From: an uncultured Bacilli bacterium
GTDB lineage: Bacteria > Bacillota_I > Bacilli_A > RF39 > UBA660
DNA: 64,000 bases
NCBI GenBank assembly: GCA_947589495.1
Contig: CANQAK010000001.1
Span: 13,017-77,016 of the forward strand
Direction: 5' to 3'
In this document: positions 3,658-32,287 of the stretch, one piece after another
Layout of the letters: the number at the start of each line of letters is the position of its first letter
How positions within the stretch are numbered: the stretch's first letter is position 1
Notes under the pieces: generated by a model
Database searches by the model: none
What the model was told of the DNA's origin: nothing
The model's input: only the letters and a program-made list of their open reading frames with translations
Position numbers and translations under genes: made by a program

Positions 3658-4197
3658 TTAAATTTTATACATTTTGGCCTTATTTCTAGTAGCTAAATAA
3701 GCTCCAACAGCAACAACTGCTATAACTCCTAATGCAATATAAGGTAATGTTGCACCAGTTTGTTTATTATCTGCAGCTTGATCTGGAATTGTTGCAGGTT
3801 TAATTGTTGCAGTTTCATTATTTAATGCAACACCAATTTCACATTCTGTTGAACCACTTGCTTTGTATGTGAAAGAAAATAAATCACCTTCACCAACAAC
3901 ACCAAAAGAAGTTAATTGTACAGTCCAAACTCCACTGTTTTCATTTTGTGATTGAACTGTCCATTCAGATTCAGAAGCACTAAAAATACTAGAAATTTCT
4001 GCTCCACCACGTTCAGTTAAAGTTACAGTTAAATTATCTACGGCCTCTGTACCTGTAATTGTATAGGCTACAGTACAAGTTATATTTCCATTTTCATCTT
4101 GATTACTACAATTTGGAACAATTCCTGTTGCGGCTTTCGCACTAAGCGGTAAAAATGCTATTAAAGACATTACCATTAAACCAAATAATTTTTTCAC
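3658..4197 (-). CDS. Small secreted or cell-surface protein with a signal peptide and a C-terminal tripartite anchor ('NKQTG' + hydrophobic stretch + basic tail); candidate sortase substrate
   Basis: N-terminal 'MKKLFGLMVMSLIAFLPLSAKA'. C-terminus '...DNKQTGATLPYIALGVIAVVAVGAYLATRNKAKMYKI'. Confidence 0.55.
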   Translation of the reverse strand: MKKLFGLMVMSLIAFLPLSAKAATGIVPNCSNQDENGNITCTVAYTITGTEAVDNLTVTLTERGGAEISSIFSASESEWTVQSQNENSGVWTVQLTSFGVVGEGDLFSFTYKASGSTECEIGVALNNETATIKPATIPDQAADNKQTGATLPYIALGVIAVVAVGAYLATRNKAKMYKI

Positions 4198-4325
4198 TTT
4201 TATCCTCTCCTACTCTCTATTATGTCAACATTATATCATAAAAATACAAAAATCTACATTTTTTTGAAAAAAAATTATTAAAAAATGTCAAATTGTGTTA
4301 TTATATATAATAAGGAGAATAAAAT

Positions 4326-5939
4326 ATGATAAAGATTCTTTTTCAAATAAAAGATAACAGATTATATATTCAAAAAAGAAAAAGACTTAATGCTGATCAA
4401 AAAAGTCTTATTAATACTAATGTTATTAGTGAAAATGAATTAGTATTTAGTGATGAATACATAAAACAAAATGTTAAAATAATCCATAATTTTGTTAAAG
4501 AATTAATTAATAATTATAATATTGATACTCTAATAATTAAAGAATTAGAAATAGCTCCTTTAATTTTACATGTGTCAAGTAATATAACTAATTTAAAAAA
4601 TTTATATCTTTTAGAAGAATCAATTATCAACTATAAAGTATGTGAAAAAATAATTAAAACTAATTCTATTAAATATGTTTCTTTATATAATATTCCAACA
4701 TTTTTATTAGAAATGTTAGATAGAGAAAAAATTATTGTAGAATCAAGAAGTGAAATATTATTTTTAAGTAATTTTATGAAAGATAATAATTTAGATAATT
4801 TTTCTTCTCTATATTATAAAACTACTATTTATATTAATCTTCCCTTTTCTAAAGAAGATGAAGAAGATTTTCTATCTTTTATTAATATTAATAAATACTT
4901 AAAAAATATTTATGTTAATAAATTAAATAAAAATGATATTGAAAATATTTTAGAAATACTTTATAAATTAAAACTTAAAAATATTAAAATTTATATAGAA
5001 GAAAATATTAATGATGTTGAATTAATTGAATATTTAAAAAAGATTAACAAAAGAAATGCTAAAATAAATGGAATTCATTTTAAAATTGATTATAGTAAAG
5101 AATATTTAGAAGATAATTTAATGAATCAAATTCATATTAATACTATTAAAGCTTGTATTTTTATTTCTCTTTTCTTAGTAAGTTCTTTAGTACTCTATGT
5201 TTTTTCATCAAATTATATGTCAATGCAAAAAGTTGAAGATATACAAGATGATATAAATAATGCAATTGCTGAAAATAAAAATGAAGAAAATGAAGAAACA
5301 CAAGAAGAAATTATAGAAGAGCCTCCAGTAGAAGTACCAACAGAAGAAGTAAAAGAAGAAAAGGTTGAACCTAAAATGGTTGAAGACTATGCTGCTCTTT
5401 TAGAAATTAATAAAGATACTGTTGGTTGGTTAAAAGTAAATAATACAAATGTTGATTATCCAGTAGTTCAAGCTAGTGATAATGATTATTATTTATCAAG
5501 AAATTATAAAGGTCAAAAAGACAACAGTGGTTGGATTTTTCTGGATTATCGTGCTGATGCTGTTAATTTAAGTCAAAATAATATTATTTTTGGACATAAT
5601 ATGTATTACAGTGGTGTTATGTTTGGAACTCTTTATAAAACTAAATATTCTAATTGGTATACTAATCCTGAAAATCAAATTATAGAATTTAATACTATGT
5701 ATCAAAAACTAAGATGGCAAATTTTTTCTATTTATGTTGTTCCTAATACAAATGATTATTTAATTGCTAATTTTAGTTCTGATGAAAAATTCCAAGAATT
5801 TCTAAATTTAATTACTGAACGTAGTATTTATGGATTTAATACTCCTGTATTTACTACTGATAAAATACTAACATTATCAACTTGTTCTAATAATGGTAAA
5901 AATAGATTAGTTATACATGCTGTTTTATTAAGCGATTAA
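4326..5939 (+). CDS. Class B sortase (SrtB-like) carrying an unusual ~270-aa N-terminal cytoplasmic Leu/Ile-rich repeat domain, a single TM helix and an acidic linker
   Basis: The C-terminal 210 aa carry SrtB hallmarks: 'VGWLKVNNTNVDYPVVQASDNDYYL', 'NIIFGHNMYYSGVMFGTL' (catalytic His) and 'LTLSTC' (catalytic Cys). A TM helix 'IKACIFISLFLVSSLVLYVF' lies near aa 275, so the preceding 270 aa are cytoplasmic. Confidence 0.75.
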   Translation: MIKILFQIKDNRLYIQKRKRLNADQKSLINTNVISENELVFSDEYIKQNVKIIHNFVKELINNYNIDTLIIKELEIAPLILHVSSNITNLKNLYLLEESIINYKVCEKIIKTNSIKYVSLYNIPTFLLEMLDREKIIVESRSEILFLSNFMKDNNLDNFSSLYYKTTIYINLPFSKEDEEDFLSFININKYLKNIYVNKLNKNDIENILEILYKLKLKNIKIYIEENINDVELIEYLKKINKRNAKINGIHFKIDYSKEYLEDNLMNQIHINTIKACIFISLFLVSSLVLYVFSSNYMSMQKVEDIQDDINNAIAENKNEENEETQEEIIEEPPVEVPTEEVKEEKVEPKMVEDYAALLEINKDTVGWLKVNNTNVDYPVVQASDNDYYLSRNYKGQKDNSGWIFLDYRADAVNLSQNNIIFGHNMYYSGVMFGTLYKTKYSNWYTNPENQIIEFNTMYQKLRWQIFSIYVVPNTNDYLIANFSSDEKFQEFLNLITERSIYGFNTPVFTTDKILTLSTCSNNGKNRLVIHAVLLSD

Positions 5940-7027
5940 ATATCGCTTTTTTCAATGTATTTTTCCATTTCTTCTAAATTAAGTTGTAATCTTAAATTAT
6001 TTTGATCTTTTTCTAAAGCTAGTTTAACATTTTCTACTGCTTCATCATAATAACCTAAATTAAAAGAACAAATACTTAATAAATCATATATAAAACTATT
6101 CCAAGCAAATACTTCATTAATATATGTTTTACTTTTAACTTTTATTTTTAAAGCTAATTTTAAATACTTATAAGCTTCAAAATAATTTTCTTCTTCATAA
6201 TAAAGATAAGCAAGTTCTATGTAAGCTTCTCTTAAATATGGTGCCTCTTGAATGGCTTTTAAATACCAATTTTTAGCTTCTTCTTTCTCATTTTTAGCAC
6301 TATAACTTCTAGCAATATAACGCATAGAGGCAGCTCTTTCATCTTTCCAAGTAGCACTTTTTAAATCAAGATGTTTTTTTAATGTTTCAATACATTTATC
6401 CCATTGACAATAATACATATATTCTCTACCTAAATAATGCATATTTCTATCATCTTCTGGACATTCTTTAACACTTAATTCTAAAAGGGGTAAATAACTT
6501 TTTCGAGATTTTGTAATATCAGGATAATGCTCTAATAAAATATTTTTACATAATACTTCTTTTTCTAAACATTTGGGAGTTAAAACTTCATGTACGGGAT
6601 GAGTCCAAGTATATGCTTTATTTTTATGAATTTTATTAATATAAAAAGTAGTTGCAGGATTACCATACTCATCAAAAGACCAATTATATTCATATCTTAA
6701 TCTTGTTACATCATCATTCCAAGTTTTAACTACTTCATCTTTCCATCCTTTTTTAAATATTTCATCTAAATCAGTACATACACATATTTCATAATCATCG
6801 GGAACTAAATTTAAAGATTCATTTCTTGCAACATCAAAACGCCATGGTTTAATTTCTTTTTCATGTACTTCAACTCCTCTTTTTTTTAATTTTTCAACTG
6901 TTTTATCTGTTGAACCTGTATCTAAAACAATAATTTTATCAGCTTCTTGCATAGAATCTACCCATCTATCCACAAACTTCTCTTCATTTTTACTAATTGC
7001 ATAAACACACACTTTATAATTTTTCAA
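5936..7027 (-). CDS. Family-2 glycosyltransferase N-terminal domain fused to C-terminal TPR repeats
   Basis: GT2-like N-terminus 'KVCVYAISKNEEKFVDRWVDSMQEADKIIVLDTGSTDKT'. C-terminal TPR-like Tyr/Ala/Leu periodicity. Lies adjacent to the collagen-like gene. Confidence 0.65.
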   Translation of the reverse strand: MKNYKVCVYAISKNEEKFVDRWVDSMQEADKIIVLDTGSTDKTVEKLKKRGVEVHEKEIKPWRFDVARNESLNLVPDDYEICVCTDLDEIFKKGWKDEVVKTWNDDVTRLRYEYNWSFDEYGNPATTFYINKIHKNKAYTWTHPVHEVLTPKCLEKEVLCKNILLEHYPDITKSRKSYLPLLELSVKECPEDDRNMHYLGREYMYYCQWDKCIETLKKHLDLKSATWKDERAASMRYIARSYSAKNEKEEAKNWYLKAIQEAPYLREAYIELAYLYYEEENYFEAYKYLKLALKIKVKSKTYINEVFAWNSFIYDLLSICSFNLGYYDEAVENVKLALEKDQNNLRLQLNLEEMEKYIEKSDI

Positions 7028-7100: not shown

Positions 7101-7853
7101 TTAAGCAACTTGTACTACTGTAAGTCTTGCATCATTAACTGTTAATGTTGCAGTATTGTTTTCTGTAGTAATTGCTAAATCTAAAGTTGCTCCAGCAGGT
7201 AATTCTGCAAATACTGTTCCATTGTAATTTGTAGCAGCAGCATTAGTTACGTTTCCACTTGTCGCAGTTGTATCTATATTTTGATTATTGCTTCTTACAG
7301 CAAAGGTAATATCTGCCGTTTCTGTTGTTGTAACATCACTATTATAACTTATTTGATAAGTTCCTTCTTCATCTACAGTTAAACTATTTGTAGAATAATT
7401 AACATTTTGAGCTGGTAAAGTTTCTCCTAATTGAATTTGATATGGACTAGAATCTTGTGTTAAATTAATACTTTGAGATCCTGTATTATAAAGTCCACCA
7501 AAAGCGGTAAATCCAACTGGTCCTGTTGGCCCTTCAATTCCTTGAGCTCCTGTTGCTCCAGTTGCCCCAGTTGGTCCTGTTGGACCCGTTGGCCCTGTAG
7601 GTCCTGTTAATCCAGTAGGACCTATTGGTCCAGTTGGACCTTGTGGAATAGTTAAATTTAAAATAAAATTAGGTGCTACTCCTGTAATACTTGCGGCAGC
7701 TTGACTGCCTGGAGCACCTGTAGTTACTGTACCAATTGTTAATGTCATATTTCCTGGAACAACATTACTTTGAGCTAAGCAACAACAAGGTGATGGTCTA
7801 TAATTTTTATTAAAATTTTGAATTATACATCTAGCTCTTTCAACGTTATTCAT
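7101..7853 (-). CDS. Collagen-like triple-helix-repeat protein, BclA-like exosporium or spore-surface glycoprotein candidate
   Basis: A central tract of about 25 G-X-Y triplets ([44 protein letters not shown]) lies between an N-terminal domain and a Thr/Asn-rich C-terminal beta-domain. A CATATGTTA motif (sigK-type -10) lies upstream. Confidence 0.75.
7520..7660 (-). repeat. Imperfect 9-bp tandem repeats encoding the GPT collagen triplets
   Basis: Reiterated 'ggtcctgttgg/ggacccgttgg/ggccctgtagg' units are visible in the sequence. Confidence 0.7.
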
Positions 7854-9116: not shown

Positions 9117-10622
9117 TTATTTTTCTAATTTACAAGTATATCCTAATGTATTTTTAAAATAATCCATTAAACTACGATATGTTGCAATATTTTCTTCTCC
9201 ATATTGGGTTTTTATACTATCGTTATCTAACTTACTAGTTATAGTGATAATATTTGAAGTATCATCAAATGTTGCTTCTCCTGTTACATTATTAATTGTT
9301 AAATCACTATTTCCATCATATTCTTGTTTATAACTCATATATTTTGTAGAATCACTAAATGTAAATGTATGAATTTCAAAAGCTAACCCTCCATAAACAT
9401 TAGTCGCACTATCCGTATCAGAAATAGCAAATTTTTCACTAACTGTCATAGAAGCTCCAATATCACTAACATTTTGATCTTTAGAACTACAAAGTAAGTA
9501 ACCTTTAATTGGATTTTCAACAATTACTAAATTACCTTTAGCAGTAGCTTTCTTTCCGTTTGAATTAGTAACTTCAATGTCAACCTCATAACTACCTGCT
9601 TCTCCATTTATAATGTTATTAACAGATGCTGCATCTACAAATTCATATGTACTACTACTTTCAGAATCTTGAGCAAATTCACTTGCTTCAATATTTTCTC
9701 CTTTAGATTTATATACAGTTTTTAATGCTACTGTAACTTCTGTATTATCTATAACTGTAATTGTACCATCTTTATGAACTTCTCCACAAGTTACAGTATA
9801 TTTATATGTTCCAACTTTAGAAACATCTACTTCTAAAAAATTTGTATCACAATTTGTAATTGCAGTACCAGTAACTGTTGCATAATCACTAGTATTAGCA
9901 GATAAAGTATCTCCTAAACTAATTTCTATATCTTTAGTTTCAATAGTAATTTGAGAAGTAACATTATTTAAAATATTAGTATATCTTAATACATAAAATG
10001 TACCAAAACCAACACCCGCTAAAACTACTAAAACTATAATTATAAATGGTAGTTTACTTTTCTTTTTTTGAGGTGCTTTTTCTGGTTCTAAATTAATTGG
10101 AGGTGTTGTTCCAATTGTTCCTGGATTTTCAAACCCTGGCATAGTATTTGGTTGGGAAGGTGCCGGATTTGGATTATTAAATCCTGCAGATTGAATTGGT
10201 TGATTATTAGGGACTGGATTAGAATTAGGTATTATTGTTTGGGGATTAGTAAAAGCTGGACTTGGTTCTACAGAAGCTGGATTTACACCATTATTTTGAT
10301 TAACAAAGGTATCACTATTTGTACTCATTCCATTATTAATACCATTATTTAAAGATTCAACACCCGGGTTATTCATACCTTGTGGATTTGGATTGGGATT
10401 ATTTAATACATTTGGTTCAGGATTCACTCCTACATTTCCAACTGGATTAGAATTTGGCATTGAAGGATTAACTCCCCCTAATGTTTCTACTCCTAAAGTT
10501 TCTCCACCCATATTTGGATTCATTGGATTTTGATTAGGTATTTGTGTTGGATTTGGTGTAGTACTTCCTAAAACATTTCCATTATTAAAATTATTATTAG
10601 TATCATTATTCACATTAATCAT
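9117..10622 (-). CDS. Membrane-anchored protein with a ~185-aa N-terminal Asn/Pro/Gly-rich low-complexity region, one TM helix and a ~290-aa extracytoplasmic beta-rich domain
   Basis: Contains 'NPNPNPQGMNNPGVESLNNGINNG...'. The TM helix is 'LPFIIIVLVVLAGVGFGTFYVL'. Confidence 0.6.
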   Translation of the reverse strand: MINVNNDTNNNFNNGNVLGSTTPNPTQIPNQNPMNPNMGGETLGVETLGGVNPSMPNSNPVGNVGVNPEPNVLNNPNPNPQGMNNPGVESLNNGINNGMSTNSDTFVNQNNGVNPASVEPSPAFTNPQTIIPNSNPVPNNQPIQSAGFNNPNPAPSQPNTMPGFENPGTIGTTPPINLEPEKAPQKKKSKLPFIIIVLVVLAGVGFGTFYVLRYTNILNNVTSQITIETKDIEISLGDTLSANTSDYATVTGTAITNCDTNFLEVDVSKVGTYKYTVTCGEVHKDGTITVIDNTEVTVALKTVYKSKGENIEASEFAQDSESSSTYEFVDAASVNNIINGEAGSYEVDIEVTNSNGKKATAKGNLVIVENPIKGYLLCSSKDQNVSDIGASMTVSEKFAISDTDSATNVYGGLAFEIHTFTFSDSTKYMSYKQEYDGNSDLTINNVTGEATFDDTSNIITITSKLDNDSIKTQYGEENIATYRSLMDYFKNTLGYTCKLEK

Positions 10623-12092: not shown

Positions 12093-13571
12093 TTATAAAA
12101 CAATCGCTATTAAGTTATTACTTCCCTTATTAACAATTTTTGTAACAGTATTAGATAATTTATATCTTGTATTATCTGGCATCATATTAAGTTTAGCTTG
12201 AATACCTTCTTGTACAATTACTTCTAAACTTCTACCAAATATTTCACTTTTCCAAATACTTCCTGGATCAGTTTCATAATCTTTCATTAAATAATTTATT
12301 AATTCTTTACTTTGAACTTCACTACCTATTATTGGTTCAAATGTTGATTCAACATCTACTTTCATTAAATGAATACTTGACGCTAAAGCTTTTAGTTTAA
12401 CTCCATATCTTGAACCTTGTTTAACTATTTCTGGTGTTTCTAATTTCATATCTTTAAGAGTTGGATAAACTATACCATACCCCGTTGTTTTAGCTTGTTT
12501 CATTGCATTTCTAATAAGTTCAGTTTCTTCTTTACTTTCTTTATAAGTTGCAAATATCTTTAAAAGGCCTGCTTTAGTAGTGGCTGATTCTCCCATTAAA
12601 GATTTTAATGTTTCATTATATAATTCATTTGGACTTTCTAATGTTATTGTAATTGTTCCAGAAGCTGCATCTAGTTCACTAATATATGATTTAGATATAT
12701 AAGGACTATCTTCAAAATGACTAATTATATAATCAACATCTTTAATTTTTTCAACACTTATAACACTTTCTTTAATTTTATCTAAATAATGCATTTTAAT
12801 TTCATTATTATTAGGTAAAACATGAACCCATTCAGGCATATTAACTAAAATATCCATAACTGGAAATTCATATAATGCCTCTTTTAAAATACTCATGATT
12901 TCTTTTTCATTCATTGATTCAACATTAATTGGCATAACTGGTACATCATAAGCATCACTTAAAGATCGTGATAATTCTACTGTGTCTGTATTAGTTGGAT
13001 GAACTGTATTTAATATAACAATAAAAGGTTTACCAATTTCTTTAAGTTCACTAACTATTTTTTCTTCAGCTTCAATATAATTTTCTCTTTTAATCTCTCC
13101 AAAAGAACCATCAGATGTTACTACAATACCAATAGTAGAATGATCTTTAATTACTTTTTGAGTACCTACTTCTGCTGCTTCCACAAAGGGAATAGCATCT
13201 GGAAACCATGGAGTTTTAACCATTCTAGGATTTCCATCTTCATCTTCATAACCATTAGAACCTGGAATTACATAACCAACACAATCTACTAATTTAATAT
13301 TAGTTTCAAACTCTTCCACTTTAATAGTAGCCCCATTAGAAGGTACAAATTTTGGCTCAGTAGTCATAATGGTTTTTCCTTCAGCACTTTGAGGAATTTC
13401 ATCTAAACATTTCTTTTTATCAAAATCATCAGTAATATTTGGAACTACTAAGTTTTCAATTACCCTTTTAATAAATGTTGATTTTCCTGTACGAACAGCT
13501 CCAACTACTCCTAAATATATTTCACCATTTCCACGCTTTGCTATAGAAGATATTATTTTTTCTTTTTCCAT
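12093..13571 (-). CDS. spoIVA: Stage IV sporulation protein A (spore coat basement-layer ATPase)
   Basis: 492 aa. The N-terminus 'IYLGVVGAVRTGKSTFIKRVIENLVVPNI' is near-identical to the B. subtilis SpoIVA Walker A region. Confidence 0.9.
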   Translation of the reverse strand: MEKEKIISSIAKRGNGEIYLGVVGAVRTGKSTFIKRVIENLVVPNITDDFDKKKCLDEIPQSAEGKTIMTTEPKFVPSNGATIKVEEFETNIKLVDCVGYVIPGSNGYEDEDGNPRMVKTPWFPDAIPFVEAAEVGTQKVIKDHSTIGIVVTSDGSFGEIKRENYIEAEEKIVSELKEIGKPFIVILNTVHPTNTDTVELSRSLSDAYDVPVMPINVESMNEKEIMSILKEALYEFPVMDILVNMPEWVHVLPNNNEIKMHYLDKIKESVISVEKIKDVDYIISHFEDSPYISKSYISELDAASGTITITLESPNELYNETLKSLMGESATTKAGLLKIFATYKESKEETELIRNAMKQAKTTGYGIVYPTLKDMKLETPEIVKQGSRYGVKLKALASSIHLMKVDVESTFEPIIGSEVQSKELINYLMKDYETDPGSIWKSEIFGRSLEVIVQEGIQAKLNMMPDNTRYKLSNTVTKIVNKGSNNLIAIVL

Positions 13572-26734: not shown

Positions 26735-29700
26735 TCAATCTTGTGTTATTTTGTATTCTTCATTTATTCTTTTTAAAATTAATTCATTTTCTTTGATTGA
26801 GTTATTTTTACTATAATTAACTACAAAATTTTTAGCTAAATCAATTACCTCTAGTTCACTAATATTTAAAGATAGAGCTATTTTTTCATTTGAATAATTA
26901 TAAATATATTTTAAAATGCCTACAATAATTTCTTTAGGAACACTTTTTAAAAGGGTTGGAATATTTTCTAAAGTTAAAATGTTTATTATATCATTTAAAT
27001 ATTCATATGCATTTTGTTCATTTCTAATTTTTAGTAACATTACTTTCATTTTTTTAATTATATAATAGAACTTTTTCCTTTCATAAGGTTCTAAATTAGC
27101 TTGTTCATATTTTTTCTTAATAATTTCTTTTTCTTCTTCACTTAACTCTTTTAAAAGAATATTTTCTTCTTCTAAAGTACAATCTAATAAGCCTTGAAGC
27201 ATTTGTTCACTTTTAGAATTTTTTATTAATGGTTTAATAATATCAATAATACTTATTCCTTTTATAAAAGAATCATTTATCTTATTAAGGGCATTACTTT
27301 TAATCTTTAAATATTTTTTAACAGTTAATTTTAAAATATCTACATTATTTAATAATGATTCACAATTTTTATCAGTACAATTAATTTCATTCCAAATAAC
27401 TAAAGTTTCAATGTTATTTAAACCAATTTCTTTAGTACAATCTAAAAATTCTTTTGGTAATGTTTTTAATAATTCTTCATAATATAATTCTATTTTTATA
27501 TAAAAACGATACTTATATAAATTTTGACTAATCTTTTTAATTAATGGTTTCCATGTATTATTTAAAAATTCATCACTAAACTTTTCTTTGTTAGAGTCAT
27601 TAATGACTCTTTCTAATAAAGATTTTTCTTCTTCGATTAAAAAACTATAAATATAATTTTCTTCTTCTTTACTACAATTTATTATGTCATTAAAATCATG
27701 TATAATATGACCAAATAATAAAATATCTTTTATATCTTTAGGTATAATTAATTCTCTATTATAAAATTCTTTTATTCTTTTTAATAAATCATCTATTTTA
27801 TTTTGAACACAATAATTATTTTCATTTATTTTTTTAACTAAATTAAATCTCCAACAAAATAATAATATTTCATCTTTAGTTAACCCTGCTCGTGAAAGAA
27901 AATCTATATTTTCTTTCTTAACATTACTTAATAATTCCTCTACTAAAGATTTTTCAATAGAAATATTTCTCTTTATTTTTTCTTCTTCTAAAATTTCTTT
28001 AATATTTTGAGGTATTTTTAAATTAGTTTGAGATTCTTTATCTAATAATTTATTAATTGCACTTTCTAAATACTTTTTAATATTATAATTAGAAATATTT
28101 AATCCTTTAGATATACTTGATAAATTTCTTTTTATTCCATCAACAAGGCCAAAATTATAGCAAAAAACATTTATTTCTATTTCATTTAATCCAGCTTCAC
28201 TTAAAAATTCTTGTTCTTCTAAATTATAAATTTTTTCTACTTTTTTCTTCTTTTCTTTCTCTAAAATAATTCTTTTTAATTCTTCTGGAACTTGTCTTTC
28301 AGATTTTAATTGTTCACTAACTGTATATGATACTCTTAATAAATATTGTTTTACAGTTGTTTCTTTAATATGAAATAATTCACAAATTTCTTCACTAGAT
28401 TTTACATCACCATATAATCCATTAGCTAAACCAAATATTACCATAGCATTTTTATTTAAAATCATTTGTTCACAAAATTCTTTTATTTCAGGTGATAACT
28501 TTTCAATATAATATAAATATTTATTTTCTTTTTTAGATATTTTTATTTGTAGTTTACTAATCATATTATAAAATTCTTGTTCTTCATTTTCACTTAATGT
28601 CTCTTTTTCATAATATGTTTCAATAATACTTTTCTCTTCATTTGTTAAATTTTGAAGAAGATATTGAAATTGTTTATCTGAACAATTTATCAATTCTTTC
28701 AATTTCTTTTGTTTTAATTTCTTTTCATTAACCTGAGCTTTTCTTACCTGTTTTTGTATTTCTTTTTCTTTGTAATTAGGATGTTTTTTAGATTCCTCCA
28801 TTAAAATGTCTTTAATTTTACTAGGTAAATTTATTTTATCTTGTACTTCTAAAAGTTTAATTATGGAACTTTCTATATATTTACGAACATAATAATCGGT
28901 AATACATAATTCTGATTTTATACTATTAATACTTTTTATGTTACCATCAATTAAACCAAATCTATTTTTAAAAACTTTAATTTCTATATCTGTTAAACCC
29001 GCATCTTTGAAAATATCTGTATTATCAAATTCATTAAATTTTTCTTTTCTAATGTCTTCTAAAATTATAGACATCTTTTCAAATAATTGTGAAAATTTAA
29101 TTTGTGATTTTTTATCCCATTTTGCACAAGAATTAGAGTCACCATTACGATATTTAATAAATAAATATTCTTCTTTACTTAATTTTTTATAAATTTCTTG
29201 TTCTTCTTCTAAAGTGCAATCTAATAATTCAGAAATACTTTTTATTAATTTACCATGAATTAAAATAATAATTAATTCCTTTGGTAATTTAATTCCTTCA
29301 TAAAAAGCTTCTTTTAATTTATCATAAACTATTTTTAAATCTTTTGTAATAGTAACACTTGAATAATTTAAATCTAAAGCAAGTTCTCTTACAGTTTCCT
29401 TTGAATAATTACTTAAACCATTTTTTACACAGAATAATAAAGTTTGTCTTTCATTTATTCCAAGAGTCTTAAATAATTCAACATATTTAGGATCAATAAC
29501 TAGTGGAGGTTTTTCTACTTCACTTTCTTTTCTTAATTTAGTTAACATTCTTCTCATTTTATTAACTAATACTTTAAAATCACTTGTATGACTATCATCC
29601 CATTTTCCACTTATTAATTGATTATCAGTACTATCACCCCAGCGAATATTTATTAATTCTAAATCAAAATTATCCAATCTTTTTAAAATTTCATTTTCTT

Positions 29701-32287
29701 CTTCTTTGCTACAATTTAATAATTCACATAAAGATTTAATTTTAATTATTTTATTTTTTCCTAAAATAATTTTTTGATAAATTTCATCAGGGACTCTAAT
29801 ACCATCTTTTTCAGACTCATTTATTTTATTTAAAGCACTTTCTTGTTCTTTTTTTAAAAAATGAGTTGTGGTATGCATAATTTGGGCAGCAGCATAAGCA
29901 AAATGAACTAAATTACCGTTTAATCCATATAGTAATTCTAAAGTTTGAATTTCTTTTTCTGTTAAATTAATATTTTGAAAATATTTTTCAATTGAATTTT
30001 TAGGAACTTCCTCTTTTTTTAATGAAGATAAATTTTTACTTATCTTTTTTTCTAAAGATGTAGGTATTTTTATTCCTAATTTTCTAGCTTCTTCAATTTT
30101 TAATAAAGCTTTAAATTCATAACTAGCTACATCATCTTCACTCAATTGAAGATCTAGTGCTACTAGTTTTATATCATTTTCTTGTTCTTTACCTAATCCA
30201 TATAATAATTCTAAAATTTTAACTTCTTCTAAAGTTAAATTAATTTTCTTAAAGAATGTTATATAATAATTTGGTAAATCATATAAATTAAAAACTTGGT
30301 CTTTAAAATTTTTTCTACAATGTTCAAACATCATTAAAAAATCTTGATAATATCTTACTTTTTCTAAATAATCATTATTACTATACGCTAAAACATCTTT
30401 TTGAGCTTTCTCGATAGCTTCTTCAATTTTTTTGTTATTTTCTAAAATAATTTTATCTACTAATTCATAGCTTACATTAAATTCTTTACTTATTTTTACT
30501 AAAGATACTGGACTTTTACCATCTAATCCATATCTTTTTGTAGCCATTTTCATAGCATCTTTATTAATATCAGCATCAAATACTATTTCATTTTTACTTA
30601 TCTTCTTTTCAATTTCTTTTTTAATATTTTTAGTTTCATCACTAAGATTTTTACTATTTAATTTTTTTAAAGCATTTTTTTCAATTCTTCTAATTGTTTC
30701 TTCAGAAACTCTTAAAAGTTTCCCTGCTTCTTCTTCACTATAAACATGCCCGTCACTAAGACCTCTTAATAAAAATAAAACCTTTTTTTCTTGTTCTGAT
30801 AAATTAGCTTGCTCAGTTAAATTTTCATACTGATATGTAAATTTTTGACGAGTACTTTCTTTTATTGAACTATTAGATTCATAATATTCTCTTTTTTTTC
30901 CAATACTTTCTATATTTTCATATTTTCGTCTTAATTTACTAATACCTTTATTTTCTATTTGTCTTATTCTTTCTCTAGTAAGTTTATATTTTGAACCAAT
31001 TTCTTCTAAAGTATAAACTTTACCATCAAATAGTCCATGTCTCAAACTTAAAATTTCTTTTTCTCTTTGGGTTAATTTAGCATCTTCAAACATTCCTTTA
31101 ATATAATCAGGTAATAACATTTTATAAGCATCTTCTTCAATATTTGTATTATTATCAGGAATAAAATCACCAATTTCTGAATCTTCTGAATCTCCAACTT
31201 TAACATTCATACTTAAAGTACTATCTTGAATATTTAAAACTTCTTTAACAACCTCTATAGGCCACCCTAAATCATTTGCTAAATCTTCTTCTGTAGGATT
31301 AGCAATTCCTAATCTTAATAAGTTTAATTGACTATTTTTAAGTTTAACTATTTTTTCATGCATATGAACAGGTATTCTAATTGTTCTACCTTCATCAGCT
31401 ATACTTCTAGTAATTGCTTGTCTTATCCACCAAATAGCATAAGTAGAAAACTTAGTCCCTTTTTTATAATCAAACTTTTCTGCTGCTTTTAATAAACCTT
31501 CATTACCATTTTGAATTAAATCAAGAAAATCTACTCCTCTTCCATTATATTTTCTAGCTATGCTTACTACTAATCTTAAATTATGTTCAACAAGTTTATT
31601 AATTGCTTTTTTATTTCCTTTACTAATTTCAATGGCAAGTTCTCTTTCTTCTTCTTTACTTAAAAGAGGAATTTCTCCCATTTCTTTTAAATAGGTTTTA
31701 ACATCATCTGATGAATAATAACTATCATTTTTCACATCCATAGATAAATCATCAACAATTTCAATATCATTTAAAGATGCGTAAGCTTCAATAAAACAAA
31801 CTTCTATTTCATTAGAAAATAAATTATTTAAAGAATTGCTTTCTATTACTCCATTTGAAAACTTACTATTAATAACATTTTTAATGCAATTATTTAATTT
31901 ATTATTAGTTTTTATAACATCTATAATAACATCAATTGAAGGATCATAATCTACATCACTTAGAAAAAGAGATAAAGATTTTAAATCTTTTAAAGAATCA
32001 TTTTTAAAATTTTGTTCAATATATTTTACTATTATATTCATTGCATAATTTGCTGAATTCATTAATTCTAAAATATATTCATTAATTTTATTATCTAATT
32101 CGCTTTCAAAATAAGCTTCACTTATTTCTCTATCTAAATTTTGAATATCTTCTAAAATATTATTAACTAAATTATTAAATACATCTGTAGGTATATCAAA
32201 AAAATTATATTTCTTTTTTATTTTTTCAATAATATCTTTAAAATACTTTTTTAAATCATCAAGGCTCATTTCTTTAAATTTATTCAT
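26735..32287 (-). CDS. Giant (1850 aa) sigma-70-family protein: a complete group-1-like sigma core (regions 1.2-4) followed by about ten degenerate tandem region-3.2/region-4-like HTH modules
   Basis: aa ~190-455 carry '[21 protein letters not shown]' (r1.2), '[78 protein letters not shown]' (r2), '[13 protein letters not shown]' (r3.2) and '[50 protein letters not shown]' (r4). Later copies include '[48 protein letters not shown]', '[15 protein letters not shown]', '[15 protein letters not shown]', '[19 protein letters not shown]...', '[18 protein letters not shown]...' and '[15 protein letters not shown]'. It has its own AGGAGGG RBS and a TGgTATTAT extended -10. Confidence 0.85.

Follow-up and report, generated by a model that had tools for sequence, protein, structure and literature searches.

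A class B sortase fused to a large, predicted cytoplasmic domain and its neighbouring surface protein in uncultured gut Bacilli

Sortases are described as extracellular enzymes that select their substrates by a pentapeptide and that have a membrane anchor alone on the inside of the cell. Here, we analysed a 64,000-nucleotide stretch of DNA (hereafter referred to as the window; G+C content 25%) from contig CANQAK010000001.1 of an uncultured Bacilli bacterium. It encodes a 537-residue class B sortase (SrtB) whose catalytic domain is preceded by a 268-residue N-terminal domain, hereafter the N-domain, a single transmembrane (TM) helix and a linker. A divergently transcribed neighbouring gene encodes a 179-residue secreted protein that ends in a sorting signal. 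The two are very probably a dedicated sortase and its single cognate surface protein, co-inherited across a low-G+C lineage of uncultured gut Bacilli. The N-domain is predicted to be folded and to lie in the cytoplasm, and to our knowledge such a conserved domain sets the enzyme apart from every characterised sortase. The signal with which it is paired is conserved in its tail and in its length, and not in its pentapeptide.

An ordinary sorting signal is defined by three elements only: its pentapeptide, a stretch of hydrophobic residues and a basic end (PMC4155245). SrtB of Bacillus anthracis (B. anthracis) serves IsdC, whose signal is NPKTG, and cleaves it between T and G (PMC8225981). That pair resembles the one in the window in that the enzyme is of class B, has the same His/Cys/Arg triad and has one neighbouring substrate; NPKTG is also carried by some orthologues of the 179-residue protein. 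However, B. anthracis SrtB starts with its membrane anchor and lacks a cytoplasmic domain, and IsdC is a NEAT haem-binding protein encoded in an iron-uptake operon, whereas the 179-residue protein is immunoglobulin (Ig)/cohesin-like and the conserved parts of its signal lie downstream of TG. In Clostridioides difficile (C. difficile), SrtB is the only sortase of the organism and is called housekeeping (PMC8225981). Its signals are (S/P)PxTG, and two native residues downstream of the motif raised cleavage at least two-fold; NVQTG was proposed as the signal of CbpA, but the recombinant enzyme failed to cut NVQTG in vitro (PMC4155245). Like the enzyme in the window, which its structures (5gyj/4ux7) match with an E-value of 1e-30, it belongs to class B, comes from a gut Firmicute and has no link to haem uptake, and its signals, of xPxTG type, are cut between T and G, as we predict here. 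It differs in having eight predicted substrates and a TM anchor at residues 2-25, compared with about residue 275 in our protein. The FLIAG motif in the CafA and FimB signals of Actinomyces oris (A. oris) shows that elements of the cell wall sorting signal beyond the pentapeptide decide the sortase pathway (PMC11389406). In our system, too, conservation extends past the pentapeptide, to T-G-[AS]-x-[LIV]-P and the tail, but the A. oris enzyme is a class C pilus sortase of Actinobacteria without a cytoplasmic domain, and its motif lies within the sorting signal and not at the cytoplasmic C-terminus. In Enterococcus and Streptococcus, the cytoplasmic portion of sortases sets the membrane site at which they work (Kline et al. 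2009, as cited in PMC3781834). As summarised there, these portions are a few charged residues on anionic lipid, in contrast to the highly conserved 268-residue domain predicted here. Finally, NF040525, a class B family specific for LPKTxAVK, likewise has its own specialised sorting signal; our sortase is not a member of it (61.2 bits, cutoff 200) and the signals differ.

No description of this architecture was found in the literature on sortases with cytoplasmic or N-terminal domains or on sortases of the order RF39, and the public annotation of both families, sortase and substrate, reads only 'class B sortase' or 'hypothetical protein'. We therefore regard the architecture, with its uncharacterised N-domain family, as new, and the class B catalytic domain as known.

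Both open reading frames (ORFs) lie where an earlier note on this DNA had placed them, 128 bp apart (Table 1). The sortase gene starts with ATG, preceded by the strong ribosome-binding site AAGGAGA-N7. Searching 5.8 billion proteins, we obtained more than 110 clusters; they align over 99-100% of the 537 residues at 54-100% identity, and the few named ones read 'MAG: class B sortase [Bacilli bacterium]' (MAG, metagenome-assembled genome). In the alignment of homologues, conservation is equally high in the N-domain and the catalytic domain, and dozens of N-domain residues are invariant. An exhaustive profile search found 227 N-domain proteins among 1.84 billion (1.84e9) representatives. The domain starts at most about 25 residues from the N-terminus in every match that is not a fragment starting inside the domain, and all 56 N-domain representatives of at least 460 residues run on into a sortase domain. 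The earlier note had assigned the N-terminal 270 residues to the sortase while allowing that they might form a separate upstream ORF; since the N-domain is conserved, N-terminal and continuous with the sortase in 56 of 56 cases, they are part of the enzyme. Were the long N-terminus the product of a frameshift or an assembly error, or the adjacency of the two genes a coincidence, the fusion and the pair would be artefacts. The halves are indeed separable, as genes for the N-domain with its TM helix stand alone in other organisms. However, the identical architecture recurs in more than 100 assemblies, made independently from the gut of five hosts (rabbit, goat, human, mouse and chicken), the reading frame is unbroken and has its own ribosome-binding site, and the gene pair is kept in 72 of 74 loci. 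We thus rule out a mistaken joining of two genes, and the chance of an artefact of either kind is negligible.

With one genome scanned per species, the N-domain turned up in 103 species. The best 80 of the 103 are MAGs, which have the labels uncultured Bacilli, Tenericutes, Mycoplasma sp. or Erysipelotrichaceae and come from the gut of rabbit, goat, human (Hadza), mouse and chicken. Genomes with such labels are presumably of the kind that GTDB places in RF39. A peptidoglycan wall has been predicted for most RF39 species, and the related orders RFN20 and ML615J-28 lack srtA/B sortases (PMC10868615). In these uncultured gut Bacilli of reduced genome, the pair may be the main or the only route by which proteins are attached to the wall.

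The catalytic domain is that of a class B sortase (MEROPS C60B), as had been noted before. It scores 157.7 bits with TIGR03064, the class B sortase model (curated cutoff 153.75), over residues 328-529 and from profile position 47, and 46.9 bits with the Pfam family Sortase (PF04203, cutoff 26.6) over residues 369-534. Among solved structures, compared by sequence, B. anthracis SrtB (2oqw/1rz2) is the closest, with 142.9 bits and an E-value of 8.7e-41. It is followed by SrtB of Staphylococcus aureus, Listeria and C. difficile, with E-values of about 1e-30, and by Spy0129 of Streptococcus pyogenes (S. pyogenes; 3psq, 3e-20). The motifs GHN and TLSTC occupy residues 423-425 and 516-520, and the third catalytic residue, Arg527, lies in RLVIHA. 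All 44 aligned homologues keep His424, Cys520 and Arg527, which correspond to the triad of B. anthracis SrtB in the match with its structure. By homology, the enzyme would act as a transpeptidase that cleaves between T and G and transfers its substrate to lipid II. The protein departs from class B in its architecture and not in its catalytic domain: class B sortases have their membrane anchor at the start of the protein, while here a single TM helix follows a domain of 268 residues. In one N-domain-fused homologue from outside the window (P0194, 519 residues), GHN is replaced by GKN and TLSTC by TLTTF; it is probably a pseudo-sortase that keeps the cytoplasmic domain.

Hydropathy over the 44 homologues shows a single hydrophobic peak of 2.8, with a mean TM start at residue 275, where the TM helix had been expected; the next-best value, 1.24, is far below TM level. 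The linker that follows had been described as rich in Glu and Pro. It is acidic instead, with 21 Asp or Glu and just 4 Pro in the 56 residues from about 301 to 356. It is predicted to be disordered, with a predicted local distance difference test (pLDDT) score below 50 at residues 322-348, and its length differs among homologues. We infer that the N-domain lies inside the cell from the lack of a signal peptide, the single TM helix and the position of the catalytic domain, which is necessarily outside.

The N-domain is rich in Ile (15.7%), Asn (13.4%), Leu (12.7%) and Lys (11.9%), in line with the Leu/Ile/Asn-rich composition reported for it, and it has no sequence match in Pfam, NCBIfam or the PDB. 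AlphaFold2 (AF2) modelled it with a pLDDT of about 90 in the full-length protein, and of 85.6 with a predicted template modelling score (pTM) of 0.70 when alone. The model consists of two N-terminal β-hairpins, a poorly modelled loop and about eight β-strand/helix units that are 20-31 residues apart; the fold is confidently predicted to be a β/α solenoid of protein-binding type. A Foldseek comparison of the model with the PDB gave no match at E<=1e-3. The best match is SKP2 (E 1.2e-3, prob 0.92), followed by NLRP14, leiomodin/tropomodulin, NLRC4, NLRP3/7, SDS22, MAX2 and CARMIL, with TM-scores of 0.2-0.3, and generic β/α folds (TIM barrels, Rossmann-type) are found in the same list. With the leucine-rich repeat (LRR) solenoids of RNI, SKP2 and NLR type, the N-domain shares the predicted alternation of short β-strands and helices with a period of 20-31 residues. 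Unlike them, it matches no LRR sequence model (none of the Pfam LRR models at E<=10 for 13 N-domain members) and has no internal sequence repeat detectable by hhalign of its two halves (E 0.13). Because the E-value is borderline, the TM-scores are low and a sequence repeat is missing, 'LRR-like solenoid' is a reasonable but weakly supported description. The earlier note had spoken of an LRR-like repeat domain: LRR proteins are indeed the best structural matches, while the repeat is found in the periodicity of the predicted structure only.

AF2 also predicts one continuous helix, residues 258-323, that runs from the N-domain through the membrane, and the invariant N30-T31-N32 is located in the low-confidence loop; sites for ligands or partners are often modelled poorly in this way. 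These features would suit an N-domain that responds to a ligand or state inside the cell, turning the sortase on or off through the long helix or by oligomerisation. Moreover, the gene of one N-domain homologue without a sortase domain (P0217) comes after a hybrid histidine-kinase/receiver gene. However, the N-domain has no similarity to any known sensor domain in the Pfam and PDB sequence searches, no regulator gene is conserved in the locus, and the membrane and the catalytic domain are joined by a disordered linker of 50 residues, across which an allosteric signal is unlikely to pass. We consider a regulatory or sensing role improbable.

The substrate gene starts with GTG, preceded by GGAGAGGA-N5. 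The signal peptide of its product, read from the sequence, would be cleaved at ..SAKA|ATG, and P16 and A21 of this peptide are invariant in the family alignment. The mature domain is marked by a pair of conserved Cys, a third Cys that is invariant, and two motifs, TLTExGGA and GEGxLFxFTY. Its matches to Ig-like domains are weak (Big_13, Filamin and the cohesin-like domain of TMEM132; PDB cohesin 2xdh, E 0.076). The family comprises 55 clusters, nearly all of 167-212 residues; of two shorter ones, one is a fragment and the other seems to be a fusion. Searching with the full-length substrate retrieved this one family only, the sensitivity of that search to tail-only matches being doubtful, and the 42-residue signal alone returned one fragment from the database of 5.8 billion proteins. 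In the window, no other ORF has such a sorting-signal C-terminus.

Related genomes were read as 12-kb neighbourhoods. Of the related loci, 74 extend for 750 nt or more upstream of the sortase gene. A divergent substrate-type gene lies within 400 nt of the sortase gene in 72 of them, and one locus, L054, has two such genes in tandem. The gene order DcuC-LysS-substrate<->sortase is kept at 54% identity, and the downstream side changes. The proposal of a sortase and substrate pair, with a secreted neighbour that has both a signal peptide and a sorting signal, is thus borne out by a conserved divergent arrangement.

Two known kinds of SrtB substrate were considered. A haem or Isd-type substrate is ruled out, as profile searches found no NEAT domain in the protein and the neighbours of the pair in the window are LysS, DcuC and a GT2-TPR protein. 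The other kind is a pilin, since some class B sortases are pilin polymerases. The Ig-like domain with its xxxTG signal, together with the significant match to the Spy0129 structure, would be in keeping with an enzyme that polymerises a small protein into a fibre, as Spy0129 of S. pyogenes does. However, the family alignment has no invariant Lys outside the cytoplasmic tail, and the mature domain therefore offers none as a nucleophile. Furthermore, the locus has a single pilin-like gene, with neither a SipA/LepA-like chaperone nor a second pilin, and the catalytic domain scores 143 bits with B. anthracis SrtB compared with 76 bits with Spy0129. A pilus-type system is very unlikely, and a sortase-assembled pilin was rejected for want of a conserved Lys and of accessory genes at the locus. 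As it has neither a NEAT domain nor an invariant Lys, the substrate is neither an Isd protein nor a pilin.

We compared 102 unique signals of the substrate family. The T and G of the pentapeptide, the Pro at position +5 (with T as 0) and the Lys at position -5 from the end are invariant. Tyr is found at positions -13 and -3 in 96% of the signals each, and the last residue is Ile in 94% and otherwise Leu. All signals but one (101 of 102) have the same length, exactly 33 residues, from T to the C-terminus. The element at the predicted cleavage site is T-G-[AS]-x-[LIV]-P, and the consensus of the tail is ...[KR][NK]K-x-K-[MLIV]-Y-K-I-COOH. No other part of the substrate is as well conserved as the signal, the mean column identity of the whole protein being 44%; in the 179-residue protein the hydrophobic span has 21 residues. 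The tripartite architecture recognised before (T-G near the end, span and basic tail, in a protein with a signal peptide) is kept in all these signals. In contrast, positions 1-3 of the pentapeptide vary freely, giving 39 different pentapeptides. They are NKQ in 30 signals, NKD in 10, ETK in 8, NPK in 5, NPQ in 4 and NVQ in 2, with QED, TPN, NSE and others in the rest. NKQTG had been taken for a fixed, non-canonical motif. It does not define the signal: given this drift, which includes the SrtB-type NPKTG, NPQTG and NVQTG, it is one variant of a relaxed xxxTG. The strict determinants are located after the scissile bond and at the extreme cytoplasmic C-terminus. The substrate of the window matches none of the curated models TIGR01167 LPXTG_anchor, NF033846 Rumino_NPXTG and TIGR03065 QVPTGV. 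Of 32 family members, 11 match Rumino_NPXTG (best E 0.0016), 10 LPXTG_anchor and 3 QVPTGV, all with weak E-values.

These observations suggest a mechanism. Sec would export the 179-residue precursor, which would stay in the membrane through its C-terminal span. Outside the cell, the SrtB domain would cleave the precursor between T147 and G148, and the Ig-like domain would be transferred to a peptidoglycan precursor. The N-domain would serve as a docking module that binds the consensus tail of the substrate. Recognition would then be two-sided, with the tail gripped inside and the T-G...P segment presented outside at the fixed distance of 33 residues, which would explain why the positions of the pentapeptide are free to drift. 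We favour binding of the tail by the N-domain, with two-point recognition across the membrane, since it alone accounts together for the near-invariant K-x-Y-K-I-COOH, the fixed 33 residues and the free pentapeptide; even so, we hold it tentatively, as a reading that may well prove wrong. It fits the protein-binding fold, it has an experimental precedent in the signal elements of A. oris (PMC11389406), and it fits a distant fused-sortase locus, L093. There, two co-directional genes for secreted proteins of 357 and 409 residues precede the fused sortase, and a FemAB-family gene lies convergently downstream. The two proteins are paralogous and end in NPKTG, a span and ...K(T/S)(N/K)FPQI, with 33 or 34 residues from T to the end, and the N-domain of the sortase has diverged. 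As the paralogues share the KFPQI ending, the extreme C-terminus is conserved within a system and differs between systems.

A covariation analysis (normalised mutual information with average product correction, 64 unique pairs) was uninformative on binding of the tail, as phylogeny dominates it: the tail covaries with the N-domain no more than with the catalytic domain. Several points weigh against such binding. The assignment of the N-domain to the LRR proteins is weak, and the charges that flank the TM helix are uninformative on topology. Some distant fused sortases have no adjacent substrate. Moreover, homologues that consist of the N-domain and TM helix occur without a sortase or a visible substrate nearby, so the module has a function independent of this substrate.

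Several N-domain representatives, of 278-301 residues, stop a few residues past the TM helix. In four of them (P0217, P0240, P0284 and P0295), the gene is complete with its stop codon on the contig and has no sortase domain. P0240 is the last gene of an operon for an LtaS-type synthase, a membrane protein and a LytR-CpsA-Psr (LCP) protein; a DDE transposase comes after the operon in L087. P0295 is divergent from mraZ-rsmH-ftsL-PBP2B and adjoins a PrsA-type foldase. Among the distant fused sortases, one comes directly after a class A penicillin-binding protein and one adjoins FemAB. Because complete stand-alone genes sit in such envelope-biogenesis neighbourhoods, the N-domain with its TM helix is an independent cytoplasmic module beside enzymes that assemble the wall at the outer face of the membrane. 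These contexts may point to another function, in which the N-domain docks the sortase through a cytoplasmic partner at sites of lipid II or secretion (divisome, elongasome or Sec foci) and so couples anchoring to wall synthesis. A precedent would be known sortases, whose position depends on a short tail in the cytoplasm (Kline 2009, cited in PMC3781834). However, localisation leaves the strict tail of the substrate and its length from T to the C-terminus unexplained, only a handful of stand-alone contexts were seen, and no partner emerged from them. We regard it as possible but doubtful.

Localisation and binding of the tail are not mutually exclusive. What they have in common, a cytoplasmic docking module on a wall enzyme that works outside the membrane, is probably correct; docking is favoured over regulation because the substrate tail is conserved and the stand-alone homologues occur in cell-envelope neighbourhoods. 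If the domain inside reads the tail or positions the enzyme, the system would represent a new specificity principle for surface display, an orthogonal sortase/tag pair for protein engineering, and the first functional handle on an unannotated family of 227 representative clusters. A more speculative form of tail binding, which we think rather unlikely, is that the solenoid reads K-x-Y-K-I-COOH while the catalytic domain cuts T-G 33 residues upstream, the signal being a transmembrane 'ruler' that replaces the specificity of the pentapeptide. By extension, the stand-alone N-domain proteins might act as adaptors, holding other single-pass envelope enzymes or substrates (LtaS/LCP, divisome) by their cytoplasmic tails.

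A metagenome scan with three N-domain sequences gave three loci, one of them (L099) of 1 kb; the two long ones that were read, L098 and L100, encode fused sortases, and no new stand-alone contexts were found. In L098, a second sortase of 229 residues (..LTLITCTKG..) and a surface protein are encoded about 800 bp downstream of the N-domain-fused SrtB. The surface protein has 709 residues, is rich in repeats and ends in VPTTG, a span and RNGKQN. Thus, in some carriers the fused enzyme does not belong to the only sortase system. In two other loci, L095 and L097, the gene immediately downstream of the distant fused sortase encodes a single-TM protein of 362-369 residues. The two proteins are 42% identical to each other, and one of them has weak similarity to the transglutaminase core around a conserved RTTC motif.

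Table 1 Features of the sortase and substrate genes in the window and of related loci (coordinates of L loci refer to those loci; aa, amino acid residues).
Feature	Location	Coordinates	Strand	Basis
Sortase-fusion gene, 537 aa (N-domain/TM/linker/SrtB)	Window	4326..5939	+	ORF, profile matches, homologue alignment
Predicted cytoplasmic N-domain, aa 1-268	Window	4326..5129	+	AF2 pLDDT about 90, homologue conservation
Single TM helix, about aa 273-295, core 276-293	Window	5142..5210	+	Hydropathy, AF2 helix
Predicted extracellular linker, acidic, disordered, length-variable, about aa 296-355	Window	5211..5390	+	Alignment, AF2, composition
Class B sortase catalytic domain, about aa 356-537	Window	5391..5936	+	TIGR03064, B. 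anthracis SrtB 2oqw
Catalytic triad His424; Cys520; Arg527	Window	5595-5597; 5883-5885; 5904-5906	+	
Terminator-like hairpin over sortase stop codon, common to convergent GT2-TPR gene	Window	5930..5948	+	Terminator scan
Intergenic region, AT-rich, 128 bp, with both ribosome-binding sites	Window	4198..4325	.	Sequence reading
Cognate substrate gene, 179 aa, small secreted Ig/cohesin-like protein with sorting signal	Window	3658..4197	-	ORF, family, pairing
Predicted signal peptide, aa 1-22, MKKLFGLMVMSLIAFLPLSAKA|ATG	Window	4132..4197	-	Read from sequence
Mature domain, aa 23-143	Window	3769..4131	-	Family alignment
Pentapeptide NKQTG, aa 144-148	Window	3754..3768	-	Signal logo
Predicted post-cleavage segment and membrane span ATLPYIALGVIAVVAVGAYLA, aa 149-169	Window	3691..3753	-	Family alignment, signal logo
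Predicted cytoplasmic tail TRNKAKMYKI-COOH, aa 170-179	Window	3661..3690	-	Signal logo
Distant fused-sortase locus: two substrates, sortase, FemAB	L093	1727-4132; 4145-5743; 5766-7013	+; +; -	
Operon: LtaS-type synthase, 209-aa membrane protein, 622-aa LCP ligase, stand-alone N-domain with TM helix	L087	1491-6861	+	
Second sortase and 709-aa protein, on the strand opposite to the N-domain-fused SrtB	L098	8415-11217	-	
Gene immediately downstream of distant fused sortase	L095; L097	6605-7693; 6620-7729	+; +	

The intergenic region between the two genes was scanned for promoters, and the sites found there were no more numerous than in shuffled sequence. The hairpin over the sortase stop codon is the sole terminator-like site between 3500 and 6100, where 0.3 would be expected.

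Downstream of the sortase, a glycosyltransferase of family GT2 fused to TPR repeats (5936-7027, minus strand) adjoins a gene for a collagen-like protein with GPT repeats (7101-7853, minus strand). The end of the latter is similar to the C-terminal domain of BclA, with 34 bits, just below the cutoff of 38; the homologous collagen-like gene in a related locus (L004) lacks the C-terminal domain. SpoIVA is encoded nearby (12093-13571, minus strand). The collagen-like protein, the GT2-TPR protein and SpoIVA suggest a spore former with an exosporium-type glycoprotein. Between them, at 9117-10622 on the minus strand, lies a gene for a 501-residue protein with a low-complexity N-terminus of about 190 residues rich in Asn, Pro, Gln and Gly, one TM segment and an unannotated C-terminal domain; profile searches gave no significant family match for it. 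Further along the window, an ORF of 1850 residues (26735-32287, minus strand) has sigma-70 regions 1.2, 2, 3 and 4 at residues 196-453. By eye, the next 1400 or so residues contain many further helix-turn-helix repeats similar to region 4, and the protein has the appearance of an RpoD-like sigma factor of giant size, in which this region is present in tandem copies.

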